The notes below the pieces were generated by a model. That model was not told the origin of the DNA. It did not search any database and saw only the letters and a list, made by a program, of their open reading frames with translations. This document shows positions 6,150 to 40,175 of a stretch of 64,000 nt of DNA, in pieces. The stretch comes from Camelus dromedarius (lineage: Eukaryota): positions 4,340,001 to 4,404,000 of the forward strand of contig NC_087436.1 of NCBI RefSeq assembly GCF_036321535.1, written 5' to 3'. The stretch's first letter is position 1; every line of letters begins with the position of its first letter. The position numbers were made by a program, and so were the translations under genes.

Positions 6150-6613
6150 ACACAGTTGCAGGAGCCAGACAGACGTGATAGGTGTGGTGGGCCCACCGCC
6201 ATGGCTTCCTGGGAAGTGTAGCTTAGCTCTGCTAGTCTGTGTATTCCCACATTTCTCATCCCTTCTCATCTCCTCTTCCTAACCTTCCCCCTCGTGTCAT
6301 TTCAGCTTTCTGCTTTCCAAGGGGAAGGCTGTAAAAAATTTTTTTAATGTATTGGATGATTTCCAATTTGCAGTTTCAGGTATGAAGCCCAGTGTGGGCT
6401 TTGTGAGAGAACCGCAAACCTGTGAGAAAGAACTCTGCTGTCAGGATAAGGGACCCTGTTCCTCCATCCAGCGGAAAAGAAATTGAAAATAGGTCTTCCT
6501 TTTCCCTTGTCTAGAAAAACAAGTGTCCCCAAAGCGCGCAGCCTGGGCTGAGGCTCCAGCCTTTGGCAGCGAGTAACCAAAAGCTATGACTGGGGCCCAG
6601 ATTGGGTCCTTAC

Positions 6614-7632
6614 CTCCTGGATGTGCTCCCTGGCCCCCTGAAGCTCTTCTCTGTAGCCCTTCTGCTGCAGCTCGCTAAGGCTTTCATAATACCCCTCTGG
6701 GTCACGGGTCTCTGTGAAGAGCACCTGGGAGAGGATCTTCCAGCTGGAGGTGTCCAGTGCGTGGCCCAGGGAGACCTGGAGCTGGTAACGCAGAATGGGG
6801 ACCTCCTGCTCAGTCATCTCTGGGGCGTCCCCGGACAGCACTGTCCACACGCCCCAGAGCCCCGCGGGGAGTACCGGCAGGCATGGCTCCAGCTGCGAGC
6901 GCACGGAGCTGGGGTGCTGGTGCGCCGCGCAGATGCTGAAGGAAGCGCCCAGCCCAGCTCCTCGCCAGGGACTCCAGCTCCCTGCCATGTGGCAGCTGCT
7001 CCGCCACCAAGAGCCCAGCGATGCCCGGTCCGCCTCGCCCTCCCTCACCATTTCTAGCATCTCAGTCTCCTCGGTGACCGTCACGCAGGCGCTCACTACC
7101 CGCACTGACAACACCGGGGCCTCCTAGGGCGCCATCGCGGCTGGCCCCCGCCCCACCTCTGCCTCCAGATGCACTCCGGGCCGGGCTGGACGTGGCCCGC
7201 ACTGGGCTCTGGAGAGGACTCTCCGCCTCCTTTCCTGCCAAACTCCATGGCAGCAGGCACCCTGGAAGGCTGCACATGCTCCGAGGAGAGCTGCCCTCCG
7301 ACCAGGCCAGGAGCCTCCGGGGGCCCCAGGCTCCTGCCCGGTGTTACCGAGGCAGTGGCCTCGGGCCGGCCCCTGCTCACTGGGCAGCTCGGCCTGCAGG
7401 TCCTGTCGGATGTGAGTGCGCCAGGCTCGGCGCCCCCTTGCACACCCGCCTGATGCTGGATGCTGCTCCTCTGCCTCTGGGCCGGCTGGTTGTGGCAGCT
7501 TATGGCAAACTTAGCCTCAATCTCATTCCGGGAGACGACAGAGACAAACCTGTGCTTCCCCTGCTCCTCCAGCCCATGCGGCCTCATGGCCACCCGGTCA
7601 AACTCGAGCGTCTCCTCGAGGGCCAACGACAT
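6614..7632 (-). pseudogene. JMY: Unprocessed pseudogene copy of JMY exon 1 (junction-mediating and regulatory protein)
   Basis: Kozak GCCACCATG at 7632. MSLALEETLEFDRVAMRPH...NEIEAKFAISCHNQPAQRQRS matches JMY MSFALEETLESDWVAVRPH...NEIEGKFAITCHNRTAQRQRS. SQLEPCLPV...APEMTEQE...WKILSQVLFTETRDPEGYYESLSELQQKGY...IQE matches the end of JMY exon 1. About 4 frameshifts and an in-frame TAG at 7124-7126. Ends at donor GAG|GTAAGG. Confidence 0.93.
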
Positions 7633-7914
7633 GGTGGCTCTGGTGCCAGGCCACAGGGAAGGTGCCACTGGCCCTGCCGGCCAGGGGACTCACCGGCTGG
7701 CTGAGCCGCACCCAGCCCCCCACCACTCACCCTCGCTGGGTGCCTTCAGCCATCCTGGCGTGCTGGCGGCTCTGCCCCCTCGCTCGCCTGCTGCTCCGTG
7801 CTCAGAGCCTCGCGCTCCTTTGTGGCTCGGCTGGCAGGAAAGACAATACGTGCCCCAGGAGCAGGTACAGATACACACTACTATCTATAAAATACAGAAA
7901 CATCAACTCCCAGG

Positions 7915-8260: not shown

Positions 8261-9221
8261 TGTTCCTCTTTTTCAAGATTCACTCATCTATTATGAGCCC
8301 CTGGATTTTCCACGTGAATTTCAGATTGATTGTCAATTCCTGCAAAACACCACCTGGGATTTGGGCAGGCATTCTTTGAATCCTTAGATCTATTCATGGA
8401 CTATTGTCATCTTAGTAGTCCGCTCCATGAATATGGGGTTATTTTCTGTGAATGTAGGTCTTAATTTCTCTCAACAAAATCTCTCAGCTATTGCAGCCTT
8501 CAGTGGCCAAGCCTGGTACTTCCTCACCTCTGTGGGATGCTGATGCAGAACGGACACGACATCCTGGAGAACCTCTACTGCCATGGAGCTGACTTGGAAC
8601 TGAGTCCTGAGAAGGCTTTATTCTTTACGGATTCTTAACTCCTGTAGAATTCATATTTTACTCTCATAAATGCTTATTGTCCTCATAATAAATCTTTTAA
8701 AAATAGGATTAATGTACTTCAATTACTCCATAGATGAGTAATGGATGGGTCACATTCACATAGGATTTTAATCCTTTTAGAATTAGTAGAGCAATACACA
8801 TAACAAAAAATTGAAACATTGCCTAAAAGAGAAGAGATTTGTAAATCCCACCCACAGAGGTGACTGTCATGAATGATTTGGTGCTTATCTCTCAGTCTCT
8901 GTGTCTCTCAGTATGTATCTCTCTGTCTCTGTCTCTCACACACTCACAATCAGATTCATTTACATCTATGTTGATTTCACACATATGTGGTCGTGCAGAT
9001 GGGACCCAGGATGCAGATAGTGGGTCTGCATACTTCCACCTTGAGGCCTCCCTTGACATCGGGTAGAAACCCGACATCCACTTTTCCAACTGCACACCGT
9101 TCATTCATCCACGTGAACCAGAACTGATGGAAACCATTCCCTCTCCATCAACCTAGTGTTGCTTTAATTCCCACTGTTTCAACCAGTGCTGTGATGAACA
9201 CCCTTGAAAAGACATCTTTGA

Positions 9222-9897
9222 ACAGCTGTGCAAGGACTTTACTGGGATGACGTCTAGAGGATCAGCACTGCTGGGGCAGGGATGCACCTGTGGCCCTTTG
9301 ATGTGTCCTGTACCCTTTTCCCCCGGAGAGGAGCATCTGTTTGCTCTTCCCTCCAGGAGACCTGCTGGGGCCTCTGCCTCCTCACATTGTCACCAGGGAT
9401 GGTTGTCAGCAGGCTAAAGACCTGCCAGCATGATGGTGACCAGTGCTGTCCCACAGTGTGTCCGTCTGCCCGTGTCCTCACCCGAGAGGTCGAGCATCTC
9501 TAGCACACACTGGCCACCTGCGCTGCCTCTCGTTGAACCTGCCCGTGTGTGTGCGGTTTCTGTTGAGAACACTGGGTTTCGAGAGGTTTTTGGACCACAG
9601 GGACGTGAAACCTTTCTCCAACCTTGGGTTAAGAGGAACGCATTTTCCAGGTTGTGGTTTGTCTTTCCAGCTGTTTTTCTGGGCTTTGGCTTGTTTTTTG
9701 ATTTGTTTGGTTTTGTTTTTGCCACAGGAAGAGCTAAGCGTCTCCCTTCTGTCCTCTGGCTGTGGTGTCACAGGGGGAACAGCAGCGTCTATCCCGAGAT
9801 CATGCGCAGTGTTACTAAAAGGGCTTCATTTTGTGCATCACATCTTTAATTCCCCTGGATTTCCCTTTCAAATAATAAAAATGCTACTTCAAGTAAA
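9222..9897. repeat. Direct repeat copy A (~680 bp, partly old antisense L1), paired with 12856-13530
   Basis: Near-identical sequence at offset 3632. The paired ORFs 9430..9849 and 13062..13481 translate almost identically. Confidence 0.95.
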
Positions 9898-9934
9898 AAC
9901 AAAAGAAAATCACCAGCCCCAGTTTAAAACATGT

Positions 9935-10180
9935 GGGCAGGCACAAAAAGCCACCTTTCATATGGTTTCATTGACAGGGAACACCCAGGAGAGGTACAGA
10001 CCCCCAGAGACGAAGAGGACTCGGGGCTGACAGGGGCTGGGGGAGGGAGGGAGGGGAGTGTGCGCTCTGGATCCAGGGTTGTACTTTGAGGAAAGAAATA
10101 GTGTGAAATTAGATGGTAGTGATGGTCGCACAGCATTGTGAATGCACTTAACGCTCCTGAATTGCACAATTTAAAAGGGG
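9935..10180 (+). mobile_element. Old L1M (L1MB/MC-type) 3' end
   Basis: aattagatggtagtgatggtcgcacagcattgtgaatgcacttaacgctcctgaattgcacaatttaaaa. Confidence 0.75.
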
Positions 10181-10196
10181 AAAAATCTATATTTTA

Positions 10197-11699
10197 TTAA
10201 AGAAAACTTAAAACAGCAAAATAAAAGATGCCATAATCGATGTGAAACAAAAAAAGGAAAGTAAAGAAAAACCAAACACAAACATCTTCAGGGGAAGGGA
10301 AGTCAAGTTCGGGTGGGGGAGGGGACCGATGGTAGGATTTTGGAGAAGAAGGTGTGGGTGGGCGCAGAGGGGGCTCAGGCCCAAAGGCTGGTGATGCCTG
10401 GACTGGTTCTCCGTGGCCCAGCGGTCCAGGTGCAGGTGCAGGAGCTTCAGGAGCAGCACGAGCTGCAGGAGCAGCAGGAGGGAGCTCGGGGTCTCCTGCT
10501 GGATCCTGATGGTCCTGGTTTTGGTCTCTGGCATCTTCCCCTGCCCCCGCCTGCTGTGGACCTGTAACTGTTGGAAGTGGAGAGAGCTTTCAGTCTAGTG
10601 GAAGTGCTCATGCTGTAAGAGAGGAAAAATTTACCCACGTGCCTCCCTTTCCATGTGCCTCTTCAAGGACAGATATCTTCCCAGAGCTTTCCGAACAGCT
10701 CCCACCCAGCAAGTGCCCACAGGATGTGTTCTGTGACTGAATTCTTCCAGACAGATGGTCTGAGGCCAGTCTTTGCTCTGGTGCCAGCAGCAGCCTCTGG
10801 GGACGCCTCCCTGTGTGGCCCAGCCATCGGCCCTCCCTCACCTACGCACATGCACCAGCCCCGCCCTTCTCAACTTCGGGCTCTGCCTCGGTGGGCTCCT
10901 GGTCCTCCACCTGACTCCCAGGGAGGTGCTCCAGGTCAGAGCCGGGTCTGCTGAGCTGCCTGTCACCCGCGGGCAGGACCCTGGCGTGACGCCTGGGCTG
11001 TTTCGGGGTAGGAGGCCGTCGTGGTGGCGGGGACCCCTCCTTGTGCAGACTCACCTGGAGCTCGTGCTGGCTGTGAGAAGCGTGCAGCGGCCCCTCGCTC
11101 GGAGAGGCGGCGTGGGTGTCCTCACGCAGCGGCTCCTGCGGTGTCCGGCTCTGCAATGACAGTGACTGGCAGCCAGCCCGGCCCGGAGGTCTCAGAGCCC
11201 TGCCCAGCCAGGACCACGCCTGCTTCTGCCCGCTCGACCCTCTGCTGCCAGATCGGACTGGTACCTTGGTCAGCTCAGACGGCCACCTGGGAGGGAAGAG
11301 ACACAGCCAGAGGGCATGGGCTTCGACTCGGGCAGCAGGGCCCTGCCCGGCTCGCCACAGCCCAGCCCACCAGCTGGGACCCGGGGTGCGGACGTGACCG
11401 GCCCCCCAGGCCTCTGACCCTCTCGTGCTTGAGACAGGGCCCCCCCCGCCACCCCAACATGACTGCCCACCTCCAGCAGCGAGGAAGGGGATGTGGGGCT
11501 ACCCAGGTGGGGTCTGAGTGGTGGCCCGGCCTGGGCGGGCATGCCCCGGGCCTCCCTGGGTTACCTTTGGGTCCCTGTGGCCGAAAGGCCAGAGGCGCCT
11601 GGGGTGAGAGCTGACTCAGCGCCGGCACCGCTGGCCCAGCCCCTCGCCGCGGGCCTTCCAGGGGCTGCGGCCTCGGGGTTTTGGGACGCAGCAGAACAT
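10197..11699 (-). pseudogene. Four-exon RALGDS-derived / CDRT15-type gene, disabled
   Basis: Exon 1 (11699-11565): MFCCVPKPRG...QRCRR*VSSHPRRLWPFGHRDPK|GTAACC, compare CDRT15-type MFSCC...HPRRLWPF. Exon 2 (11150-11055): cattgcag|...CAG|GTGAGT. Region 10958-10874 reads QLSRPGSDLEHL..SQVEDQEPTEAEPE, compare RALGDS QLNMPGSDLERRAHLLLAQLEHSEPIEAEPE. The terminal exon (10567-10197) is Pro/Ala-rich, ends in a hydrophobic stretch, and its TAA overlaps AATAAA (10193-10198). Lesions: TGA at 11616-11618 and an exon 3 donor reading TTGAG. Confidence 0.8.
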
Positions 11700-12607
11700 G
11701 ACTGAGTTGAGCTGAGTTCACCAACCAAGTGAGCTGAGTAGGGGCTTCTCGACAGAGTGGGTGCCTGGTGACCTCGGTTCTAAGTTCTGTTGGGTTCTGT
11801 TGCCAGGGAAGCGAGGTCACTTCCTGGGGTCCCCTTCCCCAAGCTTCCTCCTTACACAAAGCTCCCCAAGGGCCTCTCTGGGCTGCCGACGGCTCACTTC
11901 CTACCCCATGCCATGTCCACACACAGTGACACCAACCCAGCCCCCTCCCCAGAACCCTGCGGAGGCCTGGATGCAGCCAGGCCCCCAGCTCTGAGGACGC
12001 AGCTGGGTTCAGGCCTGGCTCCCCCCACAGCAGTGCTGTCACCCTGGACAAGCCACCTGCCCCTCAGGGTCTCCCCAGTCCCCCATCGGCACAGTGGAGA
12101 TCATTCTGTCCCCTGTTTCCTGGAGAAGCCATCATGCCTTAGACACATAAACATCTACAGTCACCCCCCACAGGCTGGCATCACGGGGAGCTCGTGCACA
12201 GATTCAGCAAAGGAAGGGCCCCACATAAGGCTGGCAGAGCACAGAGCGCACCCCACACAGGCCATGGTCCGCCCTGAGCTCTGGGGAAAGTTGCCCTCCT
12301 TGCCGTCTTCTTCCCAGCTCCCTGTCAGGGGGTTGAAATTGAACACAACTCTGACACCGTCCGCTCGGGCATACAACCTCCTAGGTCATTCTGTCTTGTT
12401 CAGATTCAGGCCCAGTGTCCCATCTCGGCCTCTGGGGTGGGCTGCCCCACAATGGCTCCCTGCTTTTTTGCCTTCTAGACACATGTCCTTGTGTTATCTC
12501 CACACTCTCCCCTGCAGGGTCGATGGACATTGGGTCCAGGTTCTGACATGTAGACTGACTTACGAAAATGTGTGTGACTTCCACTCATTCCCAGCTCCAG
12601 CATTCAT

Positions 12608-12770: not shown

Positions 12771-12855
12771 TTAGGACACAGGGAAGGTCATTTCTGAAAA
12801 TGCCTTGATGACATATTATTTTGAATTCATGTGACTGAAGGAAAAACCTCCATGA

Positions 12856-13530
12856 AAGCTGTGCAAGCACTTTGGTGGGATCAGCGCTAAGGACCAGTGC
12901 TGCTGGGGAAGGGGTGCGCCTGTGGCCCTTTGATGCGTCCTGCACCCTGTTCCCCTGGAGAGGAGCGTCCGTTTGCTCTTCCCTCCAGGGGACCTGCTGG
13001 GGCCTCTGCCTCCTCACATTGTCACCAGGGATGGTTGTCAGCAGGCTAAAGACCTGCCAGCATGATGGTGACCAGTGCTGTCCTGTACTGTGTCCGTCTG
13101 CCCGTGTCCTCACCCGAGAGGTCGAGCATCTCTAGCACACACTGGCCACCTGTGCTGCCTCTCGTTGAAACTGCCCGTGTGTGTGCGGTTTCTGTTGAGA
13201 ACACTGGGTTTCGAGAGGTTTTTGGACCACAGGGATGTGAAACCTTTCTCCAACCTTGGGTCATGAGGAACACATTTTCCAGGTTGTGGTTTGTCTTTCC
13301 AGCTGTTTTTCTGGGCTTTTACTTATTTTTTGATCTGCTTGGCTTTGGTTTTGCCACAGGAAGAGCTAAGCATCCCCCCTCTGTCTCCTGGCTGTGGTGT
13401 CACAGGGGGAACAGCAGCGTCTATCCCGAGATCATGCGCAGAGTTACTAAAAGGGCTTCATTTTGCACATCACATCTTTAATTCCCCTGGATTTCCCTTT
13501 CAAATAATAAAAATGCTGTTTTAATTAAAA
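12856..13530. repeat. Direct repeat copy B, paired with 9222-9897
   Basis: See copy A. Confidence 0.95.
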
Positions 13531-13564
13531 TAAAATATTCATCAGTCAGAAAAGACATTTGGAA

Positions 13565-16500
13565 TTATTTCAATGTTTTTCAATTTGTTAAGACTTGTTT
13601 TGCAGTCTGTAAGGTGATTTCCGCTGGAGAGTCCACGTGTGCCTGAGGGGCACGTGCGCCCTGCTGCTGTTGCATGCTCGGGGTACCGCTGTCTGGGCCG
13701 TTGGTTTGCAGTGCTGTTCTCCTCTGCTGCTGCCTTACTGATTTTCCTTTGGTTGCCCCATCCATTATTGAAAGGGGAATATTCAAGTCTCCTCCTATTA
13801 TTGTATGGCTTTCTATTTATCCCGTTAGATCTGCTTTATATATTTGGGAGCTCTGGTGTTGGGTGCGTATATATTTCTTGTATTAAAAATATTTTATACA
13901 ATTTTAAAGGTTCTTTTCCATTTACAGTTAGTAAAAAATATTGGCCATGTTCCGCATGTTGTTCAATACATCCTTGAACCTGTCTTAAAACCAGGTGTTT
14001 GTTCCTCCTGCTCTCCCATTGCAAAATTTCCCCTCCCGCCCCCTGATAACCATTTATTTGTTCTCTATATTTGTGAGTGTACTTCATTTTTGTTATATTC
14101 AGTAGTTTGTTTGTTTTTTAGGTTCCATATATAAGTGACACCATACAGCACTTGTCTCTGTCTGACTTAGTTCACTTAGCATGACGCCCTCCACGTCCAT
14201 CCATGTTGCTGCAAACGGCAACAGTTCTGCATATTTTATGACTGACTAGTGATTTATTTATACACACACACACACACACACGCACGCACAATTCACACAG
14301 TATCTTCTTTCCCTATTTATCTGTTGATGGACACTCAGATTGCTTCCGTATCTTGATTATTATAAATACTGTTGCTGTGGACATTGGGATTTTTAAATTA
14401 GTGGTTTCTTTTTTTTTTTTTTTCAGATATATACCAAAGAATGGAATGGGTGCTTGTATATTTATAATTGTTATATCTTCCTTTTAAATAAACCCTTTTA
14501 TCTTTATATAATTATCTTCTTTATCTCCTGTAGCATTTTCTTAAGTTTATTTTTTCCCCTAGAATTATAGCCACCCCTGCTCTCTTGCGGTTACCATTTG
14601 CATGACTACCTTTTTCTATCCCTTTACGTGCAAACTTTGGGTGTTCTTAAAGCCAAGGTGAGTCTCTTATGCACAGTGTACACTTGCAGCTTTTTGTTTT
14701 ATCCATTCAGTCACTCATTTTCTTTTAATTTGTGAGTTTAATCCATTTAAATTTAAAGTAATTATTAGTTGATTATTGTACTTATAGTTATTCTTAATAC
14801 AGTTGTCAACTAGGGTTAAAAGTGTTTACTGCACTACCATTACAGTGTTGCACTGTTCTGTATTTCTTGATATATTTACCCTTTCCAGTACAATTTATAC
14901 TTCCTTCTGCTTTTGTGTTGTTGCTTAGTGTCCTTTTGTTTGAACTTGACAACCCACCCCCTTAGCACTGCTTGTACAGCAGGTCTAGTGGTAAGAAACG
15001 CTCACATTTTGTTTGTCTGGGAAAGTCTCTCTCTCCTTCATTGCACAGGACAGTCTTGCCAGGTGTAGTATGCTTGGTTGGCAGATTATTTCTCTCAGTA
15101 TTTTTAAATATATCATCCTGCTCTCTCCTGGCCTTCAGGATTCTGCTAAAAAGTCTGCTGATGGTCTTAATGGAGTTTCATTGCATTTGATGAGTCATTT
15201 TTCTTTTGCTGTTCTGAAAATTCTCTTTTTAACTTTTGACAATTTAATTTTAATGTGCCTCGGTGTAGACCTCTTTTACATCCAAATTATTTGGAGTCTT
15301 TCGGGATCTATAAATCTAGAAGTAACTTTCCTACCCCTGATTTGGGAAAAATTTAGCCATTATTTCTTTAAATAAGCTTTCTTCTCCTTTCCCTTCTTCT
15401 TCTGAAACTCCCATTACCTATTGTTTATCGTGACTGTGCCCTGTAAGTCCTGTAGGCTTTGTTCACTCTTTTTCATTCCCTTTTACTTTTGCTCCTGTGA
15501 ACAGAGCACTTCAGACAACCTGTCTTCAAGTCTACTTGATTCTTCTGCTTGGTCACATCTGCTGTTGAAGCTCTCTACTGAATTTTTTGGTGAAGTCATT
15601 GCATTCTTTGCTCCAGAATTTGTGTTTGGGTTATTTTGTATGATTTCTGTTTCTTTGTTGAAATGTGCATTATGATCATGTATGAATTTTCTGTTTTGTC
15701 TGGTTGTCTATCTGCATTCTTTTATAGCTCAGTGAGCTTTTTTTAAGATGGTTATTTTGAAATCTTCGTCAGGCAATTAATAGATCTCTGTTTTGGGGGC
15801 TCTGATACTGGAACTTTGTTTTGTTTCTTTGGTGATACCATGTCCCCCTGACCCTGCATGATCCTTTCTCCTGTGCCGATGTCTGCACACTTGAAGAAGC
15901 AATCACCCCTCCCAGGCTTCACACACTGCCACTGGAAGGGGAAGACCTTCACCAGACAAGCCGGCTAGAAATTCTGGGGATTGATCAAACTTTTTCTATA
16001 GATATGTCCACTCTGCTCCCCTCACTTCTTTCTTGGGGAGATAGTTTTAGGACTGTATGCCTTGTCTTAATCCTACAGAGCTGTGTAAGGTGCTGAGAAC
16101 TACCTGCTCCTTTTCCCTAGGGGAGTGCCCTGCTAGGCCAGGGCTTTATGTGCAAGCACCACTTCCCTCCCTCCCTTCTGATGGGTATGTCTTAGAATTT
16201 TGTGTCCTTTCTCTATTCTACAGAGCTATGTTGAATGCCAAGAGTCACCTGCCCCTTTTCATATGGCAGTACACTGAGATGCCCAGACAATGGGTTCACC
16301 CCCACTCCATCCCTCCCTACTGAAGGGGCAGTCTCAGGGCTGTGCACCTTCTGCCGATCCTGCACAGTCAAGTTGTTGCTGAGAACTTCACTGGCTGCTG
16401 AGGCCTGTGTGTCTCTCTAGGAGTGTGGATATAATGGCCTGTGGGAAATTGTGGTTCTAGGGGTGTGTATGCAGGCTGCTATTAGCCTCCACCCATTTCT
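13565..16500 (-). mobile_element. Old L1M fragment (5' ORF2/ORF1 region) with a nested younger L1 3' end (~13880-14450)
   Basis: Antisense L1 hallmarks include ttgtctgggaaagtctctctctccttca and tgtgcctcggtgtagacctctt. The nested piece has ttccatatataagtgacaccatacag...ttcacttagcatga and a (CA)n tract. Confidence 0.75.
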
Positions 16501-38788: not shown

Positions 38789-39314
38789 TGCGATAAAGAA
38801 CTGTTTTCCAAAATGTATCAAGAACCCTTAAAACTCTGCGATAAGGAAACAAACAGACTGATTAATAAAATGGGCCACAGCCCTGAAAACACATCTTACT
38901 AAAGAAGGAATTCAGCTGCAAAAGATGCTCAACGTCATATGTCATTAAGAAATCACGTGAAATGTCACTTGACACTATTTAGAATGTCCAAAGTCTAAGC
39001 CTGACATGCACCAAATGCTGATGACGATGTGGTGGTGAAAGGGCTTTCATTCGTTGCTGATGGGAATGCAAAATGGCACACACATGACAGTTGGAGATAG
39101 GTTGGCAGTTTCTTCCAAAAATGAAACGTTCCTGTGTAATACAATCCAGCAATGACGCTTCTTGGTACTCACACAAGGGAGACACCTTGGGGAGATGTGA
39201 AGATAGGGACCCGCGTCTCTGTCCCACAGGGAAGATGTTTCTCTTTCATCCCGGGCTGCAACCCCACACTCATTGAGTTACATTCACCCCACCCCCTGCA
39301 TTCTTGCCAACACC

Positions 39315-40175
39315 TTCACCCTGAACCTCCAAGGACTGAGGCCAAGTCTCTACCCAGGTCCCCACGTCCCCTCTAAACCTCCCAGAACTGCGGGGAGGCT
39401 GGGTCTCTACACAAATCCTTATATCCACTCTGAAGCCCTCAGAACCAAGGTCAGGCCAGGTCCCCACAGAAACCCCAGGACCGAGGCCAGAATGGGTCTT
39501 TACCCAGGGGTCCCTGGACCCCGTTTAGCTCCCCAGAGTGAGGCAAGGCTATTTCTCTACCCAGGTCTCGATATCCACCTTGAAGCACCCAGTATGGATG
39601 ACAGGTCTCTACCCAGCGTGACGGGTCCCCCCTGAAGCGCTCAGTACTGAGGTCAGGCTGAGTCTCTTCCCAGGTCCCTATGTCACCTGAAAGCTTCCAC
39701 TGAGGCTAGATGGTGTCTCTACACAGATCCCCACATCCCCCTTGAAGCTTCAAGGACTGAGGCCATGTTCTGTCCCTACCCAGGACCCCACACGCCAAAT
39801 GAAGCTCCCAGGACTGAGACAGGGAGGAGCCAATATCCAGGTCACCATGGACCCCTCAAGCTCCTAAAACTGAAGCCAGGCTGGGTCTCTACCCAGGTCC
39901 CAGTGTTCTCCTAGAAGCTCCAAGGACTGAGGTCAAATCAGGTCACTATCCACATCCTCAAGTGGCCCCTTAAACTCCCAGGACTGAGAAAAGGCAGGGT
40001 CTCCAACCAAGTCAGCAGGGACACCCTGATGCTCCCAAAACAAAGGCCAGACTGGGTATCTACCCAGTCTACACGGGTATCCTGAAACTCCCAGGACTGG
40101 GGGCAGGCCTTCATCCAAGTCTCCACGTGCCTCCCAAGTTCACAGACTGGCCTGGGTCTTCACTCAGGTCCCTGT
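39315..40175 (+). repeat. Degenerate 57-bp tandem repeat (~15 units); consensus translates as EAPRTEARLGLYPGPHVPP
   Basis: ggactgagg-type anchors recur near 39755, 39812, 39869, 39925, 39982, 40039 and 40095. Consensus GAAGCTCCCAGGACTGAGGCCAGGCTGGGTCTCTACCCAGGTCCCCACGTCCCCCCT. Confidence 0.88.

Follow-up and report, generated by a model that had tools for sequence, protein, structure and literature searches.

The analysed window is a 64,000-nucleotide stretch of the Camelus dromedarius genome (NC_087436.1, positions 4,340,001 to 4,404,000, forward strand), and all coordinates refer to it. A spliced gene copy lies on its minus strand. Joining four pieces of 135, 96, 37 and 371 nt in phases 0/0/1 yields 212 codons followed by TAA, and the coordinates and join proposed in an earlier note on this DNA were reproduced, including an AATAAA that overlaps the stop codon. 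All acceptors are AG and the first two donors are GT; the third donor reads TTGAG. Exon 1 comprises a 5' UTR (11700..11798), the translation of which matches N-terminal extensions of cattle and buffalo models, and a coding part (11565..11699) for a 45-residue leader that is basic, amphipathic and bears a Cys-Cys pair. Exon 2, as drawn in alpaca models, spans 10874..11150 and includes a RalGDS-like part (11150-11055), a GTGAGT read-through (11054-10980) and a remnant of the end of the REM domain with the linker that follows it (10872..10979). The last exon encodes a Pro/Ala/Glu-rich linker (10290..10567), which ends in an LDFP motif and is about 50 residues shorter than in the alpaca paralogue P0004. 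It closes with a Phe/Leu-rich, 30-residue C-terminal tail and the stop codon (10197..10289), encoded by T-rich DNA and predicted to be helical. The AATAAA, seen in the sequence at 10193..10198, is a putative poly(A) signal. The region 10197-10594 is open in two frames of 130 and 128 codons, both with a hydrophobic end, and parts of the second frame occur in alpaca proteins of the P0007/P0009 type and in ruminant proteins. Within intron 1, a 22-nt AG...GT piece at 11265-11286 (minus strand) follows a strong pyrimidine tract and resembles a micro-exon; it is used by no alpaca model.

While the join and its phases were right, the four exons first proposed are not the main form. The 144-nt segment 11054-10911, formerly read as intron 2, is in frame, contains no stops and is coding in all 20 alpaca proteins. 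The annotated form thus has three exons and 260 codons. Three deer models (P0050, P0107 and P0118), of ten ruminant models examined, lack the segment. Since P0107 and P0118, which continue beyond it, appear to be spliced at the equivalent donor, the four-exon form is a candidate minor isoform.

Both lesions described earlier are present. The only internal stop in the joined frame is a TGA at codon 28 (11618-11616 on the minus strand), where Trp is found in 20 of 20 alpaca proteins and in 93 of 101 distinct leaders. At the damaged TTGAG donor (10869..10873), the dromedary copy encodes Val where the read-through translations of its relatives give Gly, which confirms a G-to-T change at position +1 of the exon-2 donor. 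The sole in-frame ATG is the first one; the stop lies at nt 84 and the last junction at nt 412. An early stop far upstream of the last exon junction is expected to elicit nonsense-mediated decay, and such decay is thus expected here. Given the TGA, the lack of a later in-frame ATG, the distance from stop to last junction and the damaged donor, the copy is most likely a pseudogene from which no protein would be made. In an index of sequencing runs, seven RNA runs from two studies, one of them a reproductive-system RNA-Seq study, contain 0.22-0.34 of the words of 10150-11800 and one further run contains 0.19; these shares fit the dromedary copy, paralogues or DNA carry-over alike and were not used as evidence. 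Six-frame profile scans of the whole 64 kb detected one leader and one exon 2, with no second copy and no GEF exon.

A search with exon 1 retrieved seven alpaca RefSeq protein clusters (82-91% identity, E 3e-18 to 3e-16), and all dromedary parts beyond exon 1 match the same proteins, so the reconstructed gene is no chance assembly. The clusters hold 20 distinct sequences, some of them isoforms of one gene, under at least 35 accessions and on contigs of seven differing sizes. RefSeq labels them 'uncharacterized' or 'skin secretory protein xP2-like' (e.g. XP_072796879.1, XP_072816817.1, XP_072821441.1). The family is thus not hidden, as had been claimed, and the intact paralogues that had been suggested as possible are found as 20 proteins with Trp28 and shared exon boundaries. 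All paralogue proteins are gene models, and the comparisons made here are of predicted proteins. The dromedary copy is 81-86% identical to the alpaca paralogues over the first 170 residues and groups with six of them in the tree (support 96/93), on a branch (0.15) longer than that of any other camelid sequence (at most 0.07). The only further match in one search was P0024, a partial Camelus ferus model. The alpaca 'xP2-like' proteins share exons and leader with the dromedary copy and vary at their C-termini, with the tail in 8 of 20; they differ from it in lacking the stop at codon 28 and the damaged donor, and in a longer Pro/Ala repeat. Exon 1 has a best 19-residue hydropathy of -0.86, which by hydropathy gives no N-terminal signal peptide. 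Window pieces of the dromedary copy and two paralogues matched no Pfam family. The database labels, 'xP2-like' as well as secreted or GPI-anchored protein, were rejected on these two results. ESM Atlas gave no usable match, and a metagenome contig scan for paralogue DNA gave 598 pattern matches, none of which was confirmed.

We built a profile from 16 leaders, which matched 168 proteins. Among the 120 matches listed are at least eight primate proteins named CDRT15 or CDRT15-like, macaque ral-GDS-related and equid RalGDS-like proteins, and GEF-less models from bats, cattle, buffalo, sheep, deer, armadillo and tamandua. Exon 1 and the CDRT15/CDRT15L2 leader share 47-53% identity (E 2e-14 and 6e-14 in pairwise comparison). 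The likeness to CDRT15/CDRT15L2 and RalGDS-like genes proposed in the earlier note is thereby borne out by both profile and pairwise comparison. A Cys occurs within the first 8 residues of all 101 distinct full leaders and an adjacent CC in 90; their mean net charge is +9.6, and the hydrophobic moment of the central segment exceeds that of shuffles in 99, counts that are inflated because the sequences are related and were found with the leader profile itself. The best-kept residues are Cys3, Cys4, Pro6, Trp28 and LWPF. A Cys near the N-terminus together with a basic amphipathic segment is typical of N-terminally S-acylated proteins, and the leader has both. The leader is portable, judging from Molossus models in which it is fused to other proteins, namely to a PACS-type C2 domain in P0038 and, in P0042, to the N-terminus of COPS2 (E 1e-51). 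Part of the leader and exon 2 are tandemly repeated in P0027 (5 stretches) and P0025 (13 stretches).

Primate CDRT15 and CDRT15L2 have an MFSCC...RRLWPF-type leader and no GEF, as in the camelid family, but carry Arg at position 28. Their TM-like segment, present in 5 of 9, lies 52-77 residues from the end and is not homologous to the dromedary tail, the score of which against two CDRT15L2 proteins does not rise above composition controls (1997/3000 and 2216/3000 controls reach it). The CDRT15L proteins appear, from their predicted sequences, to read through the exon-1 donor into the counterpart of dromedary intron 1. In a tree of 88 columns, CDRT15 and camelid leaders fall in separate supported clades on a backbone without resolution. 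CDRT15 is given as a 188-residue protein with a predicted plasma-membrane location in the accessible part of one report (PMC10403009).

The link to RALGDS was drawn through proteins that databases name RalGDS-like and through their Pfam domains. Residues 1-140 of P0004 gave 35 matches among 1.84 billion representatives, including horse, donkey and rabbit proteins named RalGDS or RalGDS-like, one with RasGEF and one with RasGEF_N. P0004 is 40% identical to horse RalGDS-like P0055 over leader and exon 2 (E 4e-11). A leaderless exon-2 profile matched the end of the RalGDS-like REM domain (hhalign E 1.8e-6, probability 89.8, 39 columns; a second comparison gave E 5e-5), so that a REM remnant of RALGDS type supports the relationship first suggested. 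Only these 39 C-terminal columns of REM (RasGEF_N) are left in the dromedary copy. The LDFP motif of its linker corresponds to the one located ahead of the RasGEF domain in relatives with a GEF, where FPP stands directly before Pfam RasGEF position 2 in 15 of 15 proteins checked (of 25). GEF-less proteins of camelids, deer, armadillo and bats align at the FPP motif and then continue into a Phe/Leu-rich tail. For the CDC25-homology (RasGEF) domain, Pfam gave no match and the six-frame scan of the window no exon, and the sequence departs where this domain starts, in agreement with the REM/CDC25 loss noted before. Horse, donkey, rabbit and macaque RalGDS-like or RGL4-like proteins share the leader, the exon-2 part, the REM end, the Pro-rich linker and the (LD)FPP motif. 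The 25 examined retain RasGEF and others REM parts alone, whereas both the REM core and CDC25 are missing from the camelid family. At an E threshold of 0.01, RasGEF is found in 25 of 25 GEF-bearing leader proteins and a Ras-association domain in none, nor does the camelid family contain one. Homology shows that the family descends from leader-bearing RalGDS-like genes, as far as gene models represent them. Horse P0055 is itself REM-only and GEF-less and belongs to a 63-member cluster, an independent large expansion of a non-catalytic form.

Ruminants carry similar GEF-less models under unrelated names: Bos indicus P0119 ('fibrous sheath CABYR-binding protein-like'), Bubalus P0166 ('PTPN23-like') and Cervus P0125 and P0127. 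They have an MFCC-type leader, the exon-2 read-through, the REM remnant and the FPS junction, as in camelids. Identity to the camelid models is 28-39%, the linker is partly in another frame, and a sister relation is unsupported by the tree, which leaves camelid and ruminant leaders unjoined. The old exon-2 donor is read through in camelids, ruminants and bats alike; of 33 proteins tested, 19 contain a strict motif for this, and several of the misses carry a variant. The GEF-less layout is thus shown by homology of predicted proteins to be common to camelids and ruminants, and that of bats is similar.

The tail was compared with tails of relatives against 3000 composition controls each. None of the controls reaches the score with cattle or with deer. 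The similarity is marginal for buffalo (152/3000), armadillo (131/3000) and one bat (47/3000), and no better than composition for tamandua and seven other bats (156-2335/3000). A TM-like segment within 15 residues of the C-terminus occurs in 8 of 20 alpaca, 4 of 10 ruminant, 6 of 25 bat and 4 of 7 xenarthran models, and in none of the 25 GEF-bearing leader proteins. AlphaFold2 predicts P0004, from a 7-sequence alignment, to be disordered (mean pLDDT 51) apart from two helices, one confident at 283-312 and the other weak at 21-31. A C-terminal hydrophobic helix is predicted for the dromedary copy and 8 of 20 paralogues, a feature that composition often yields by itself. The homology of the tails shows shared DNA, not selection.

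Self-comparison of the window revealed that the gene is enclosed by 691-bp direct repeats, with an upstream copy at 12842..13530 and a downstream copy at 9208..9898 that are 92% identical. The period is 3634 bp and about 1.2 units are present. A piece at 12410..12445 (minus strand), upstream of the ATG, matches the alternative C-termini of alpaca P0017 and P0020. Because the C-terminal peptides of these two models match the window at about 12430, we infer that their splicing joins one unit to the flank of its neighbour, as would occur in a head-to-tail array in alpaca. The stretch 10160..10481 (plus strand) resembles the alpaca satellite VpaSat05-8550 (GenBank QB059671), with six of six tested short words in order. 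These six words of 10-17 nt amount to 78 collinear exact bases, and each occurs once in the available part of the supplementary list, every time in VpaSat05-8550 (PMC13751797). The comparison is one of exact words picked after the likeness had been noticed; with 78 collinear exact bases, the match is nevertheless not due to chance. As printed there, the first ~400 nt of VpaSat05-8550 contain the region of the gene's last exon and tail (PMC13751797). The monomer has 63.5% GC, like the gene, but is 8.55 kb long compared with the 3.63-kb period, and it is catalogued as a satellite. The two VpaSat05 primers have no match in the 64-kb window. According to the accessible text of that paper, VpaSat05 was amplified by PCR only in South American camelids and gave a FISH signal, possibly non-specific, at all centromeres; the four passages of it that name VpaSat05 mention no gene (PMC13751797). 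Neither the direct repeats nor the VpaSat05 match featured in the first reading of the locus. A VpaSat04 motif match, a single 15-mer in unrelated context, was rejected.

Several other features were observed in the window. The sequence just upstream of the repeat (13540-14800), which we take to be LINE-1-like, matches other dispersed repeats of the window, among which the gene unit is inserted. About 1.5 kb beyond the downstream repeat, two GC-rich frames at 6584-7700 (minus strand) give WHAMM-JMY_N matches (E 1.3e-6 and 3.2e-3) that are not in frame with each other; a broken WHAMM/JMY-like copy is the probable source. A CpG-island-like stretch at 1500-2900, with ten GGC units at 2630-2659, is possibly a promoter. 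A degenerate tandem repeat of ~55-nt units at 39300-40120 is visible in self-BLAST and was missed by TRF.

The literature search, conducted mostly without subscription papers, found no paper on this family or leader. In rat, in the excerpts available, Ralgdsl11 and Cdrt15l2 lie ~40 kb apart and fail liftover in the majority of strains, and IsoSeq data support a further RalGDS-like gene (PMC13477028). The terms RALGDS, RGL and 'ral guanine' do not occur in the accessible main text of the horse/donkey T2T paper (PMC13477059), and the accessible supplement on alpaca oocytes lists RALGDS itself only, with no family member (PMC13663546).

We conclude that the dromedary locus, with about 1.2 units of the 3.6-kb repeat, is very probably a lone, defective member of a gene family that has been amplified in camelids and spreads in tandem arrays, a confidence that applies to its identity and origin alone. 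Homology shows that exon 2 was joined to the REM end by a deletion and that, from the first helix of the CDC25 domain on, T-rich DNA read as a hydrophobic tail took the place of this domain. Membrane recruitment of RALGDS depends on its Ras-association domain, and for this reason the leader may be a natural replacement for it, standing in for the missing domain in GEF-bearing relatives. Intact paralogues would be cytosolic, disordered proteins, and there is about an even prospect that their leader binds membranes through acylated cysteines and a basic amphipathic helix. More tentatively, and with a probability somewhat below even, the tail of those that have one might insert as a tail anchor, which would make the protein a non-catalytic spacer or tether fixed at both ends.

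The family could instead be mostly passenger sequence in a GC-rich macrosatellite, its proteins being predictions over open GC-rich frames and its tail a read-through into T-rich DNA, which we consider possible but rather unlikely. Hydrophobicity comes cheaply from such DNA: the tail DNA is 53% T, 5071 of 20000 shuffles (25%) are stop-free and equally hydrophobic, and the second open frame of the last exon is hydrophobic too. The tail might derive from the antisense end of an old LINE-1, which it seems to resemble, an origin for which self-comparison of the window gives no support; the 3' flank has no significant match to other repeats of the window, which argues against the passenger interpretation. 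Further points in its favour are the varying C-termini of the alpaca models, with the tail missing from 12 of 20, and the high divergence. Leader identity to cattle, counted by eye, does not exceed that of the translated 5' UTR, and with a camelid-ruminant identity of 28-39% most sites thus evolve at or above neutral speed. The printed VpaSat05 consensus, inspected by eye in its available part, has an in-frame stop just before the tail, and other pseudogene-rich repeat blocks are described in alpaca in the accessible text (PMC13751797). Constraint on the leader nevertheless goes beyond neutral expectation. In 13 hand-picked lineage representatives with a mean identity of 44%, 8 columns are kept in at least 12, and neutral star-tree simulations, run without an ascertainment filter at divergences bracketing the observed identity, reach 8 kept columns in 3 of 120 and 0 of 120 runs. 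Camelids, cattle and deer also read the tail in one and the same frame, even though part of the ruminant linker is read in the other, and the exon-2 read-through is kept open in camelids, ruminants and bats.

The leader might direct the protein elsewhere, for instance as a mitochondrial presequence or as an Arg-rich signal for the nucleolus or for RNA binding, rather than serve as an acylated anchor. Its N-terminal position, its charge and its amphipathicity fit a presequence, but such a signal has no need of the best-kept Cys3, Cys4, Pro6, Trp28 and LWPF, and a GEF-bearing RalGDS-like protein would presumably be useless inside mitochondria, which makes this option improbable. It is far less probable still that the dromedary copy itself functions, whether by read-through of its stop, by a start further downstream or by a product in a shifted frame. 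Only two clear lesions are present, and use of a GT one base before the damaged donor would shift the frame into one that has a hydrophobic end and remains open over 228 codons beyond codon 28; yet the only in-frame ATG is the first, the stop (nt 84) precedes the last junction (nt 412) and eliminates a residue that is among the best kept, and no camelid branch is longer than that of this copy. Capture of the gene by a retroelement, with the two 92% identical direct repeats as its LTRs, was considered and rejected as hardly credible since introns are retained, no target-site duplication or tRNA primer site is seen by eye at the repeat ends, no retroviral ORF is seen by eye among frames of at least 110 codons between the repeats, and alpaca models appear to splice from one unit into the next.

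With the locus thus read as a disabled member of an amplified family, a wider proposal can be made, although we regard it as doubtful as a whole. CDRT15/CDRT15L2, RGL4, the expanded RalGDS-like genes and many models mislabelled 'xP2-like' or 'CABYR-binding-like' may belong to a single superfamily of placental mammals, based on a portable first exon of 45 residues that would target membranes and would have replaced the Ras-dependent targeting of RALGDS. In one branch, with camelids, ruminants, bats and armadillo, a tail anchor would have taken the place of the GEF at one common position, giving a disordered membrane-to-membrane spacer that was amplified in camelids as a gene-bearing macrosatellite, catalogued to date as satellite DNA without coding function. 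The dromedary copy alone, a pseudogene, is of little import. The value lies at the family level: one leader across CDRT15, RGL4 and RalGDS-like proteins, the exchange of GEF for tail, and a gene within a catalogued satellite. The family offers a testable origin and a candidate function for human CDRT15/CDRT15L2 and RGL4 and for dozens of mislabelled livestock, bat and horse models.

Two known systems are reminiscent of this family. S-acylated proteins of the GAP-43 and RGS4 type combine an N-terminal Cys with a basic amphipathic segment, as does the leader, in which acylation is putative. D4Z4/DUX4 and RS447/USP17 are gene-bearing macrosatellites, GC-rich tandem units of several kilobases with broken orphan copies elsewhere. 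The dromedary gene differs from them in having introns and no catalytic or DNA-binding domain, and no sequence relation to them is claimed. The sequence match to VpaSat05-8550 suggests that this published alpaca satellite may be a gene array.
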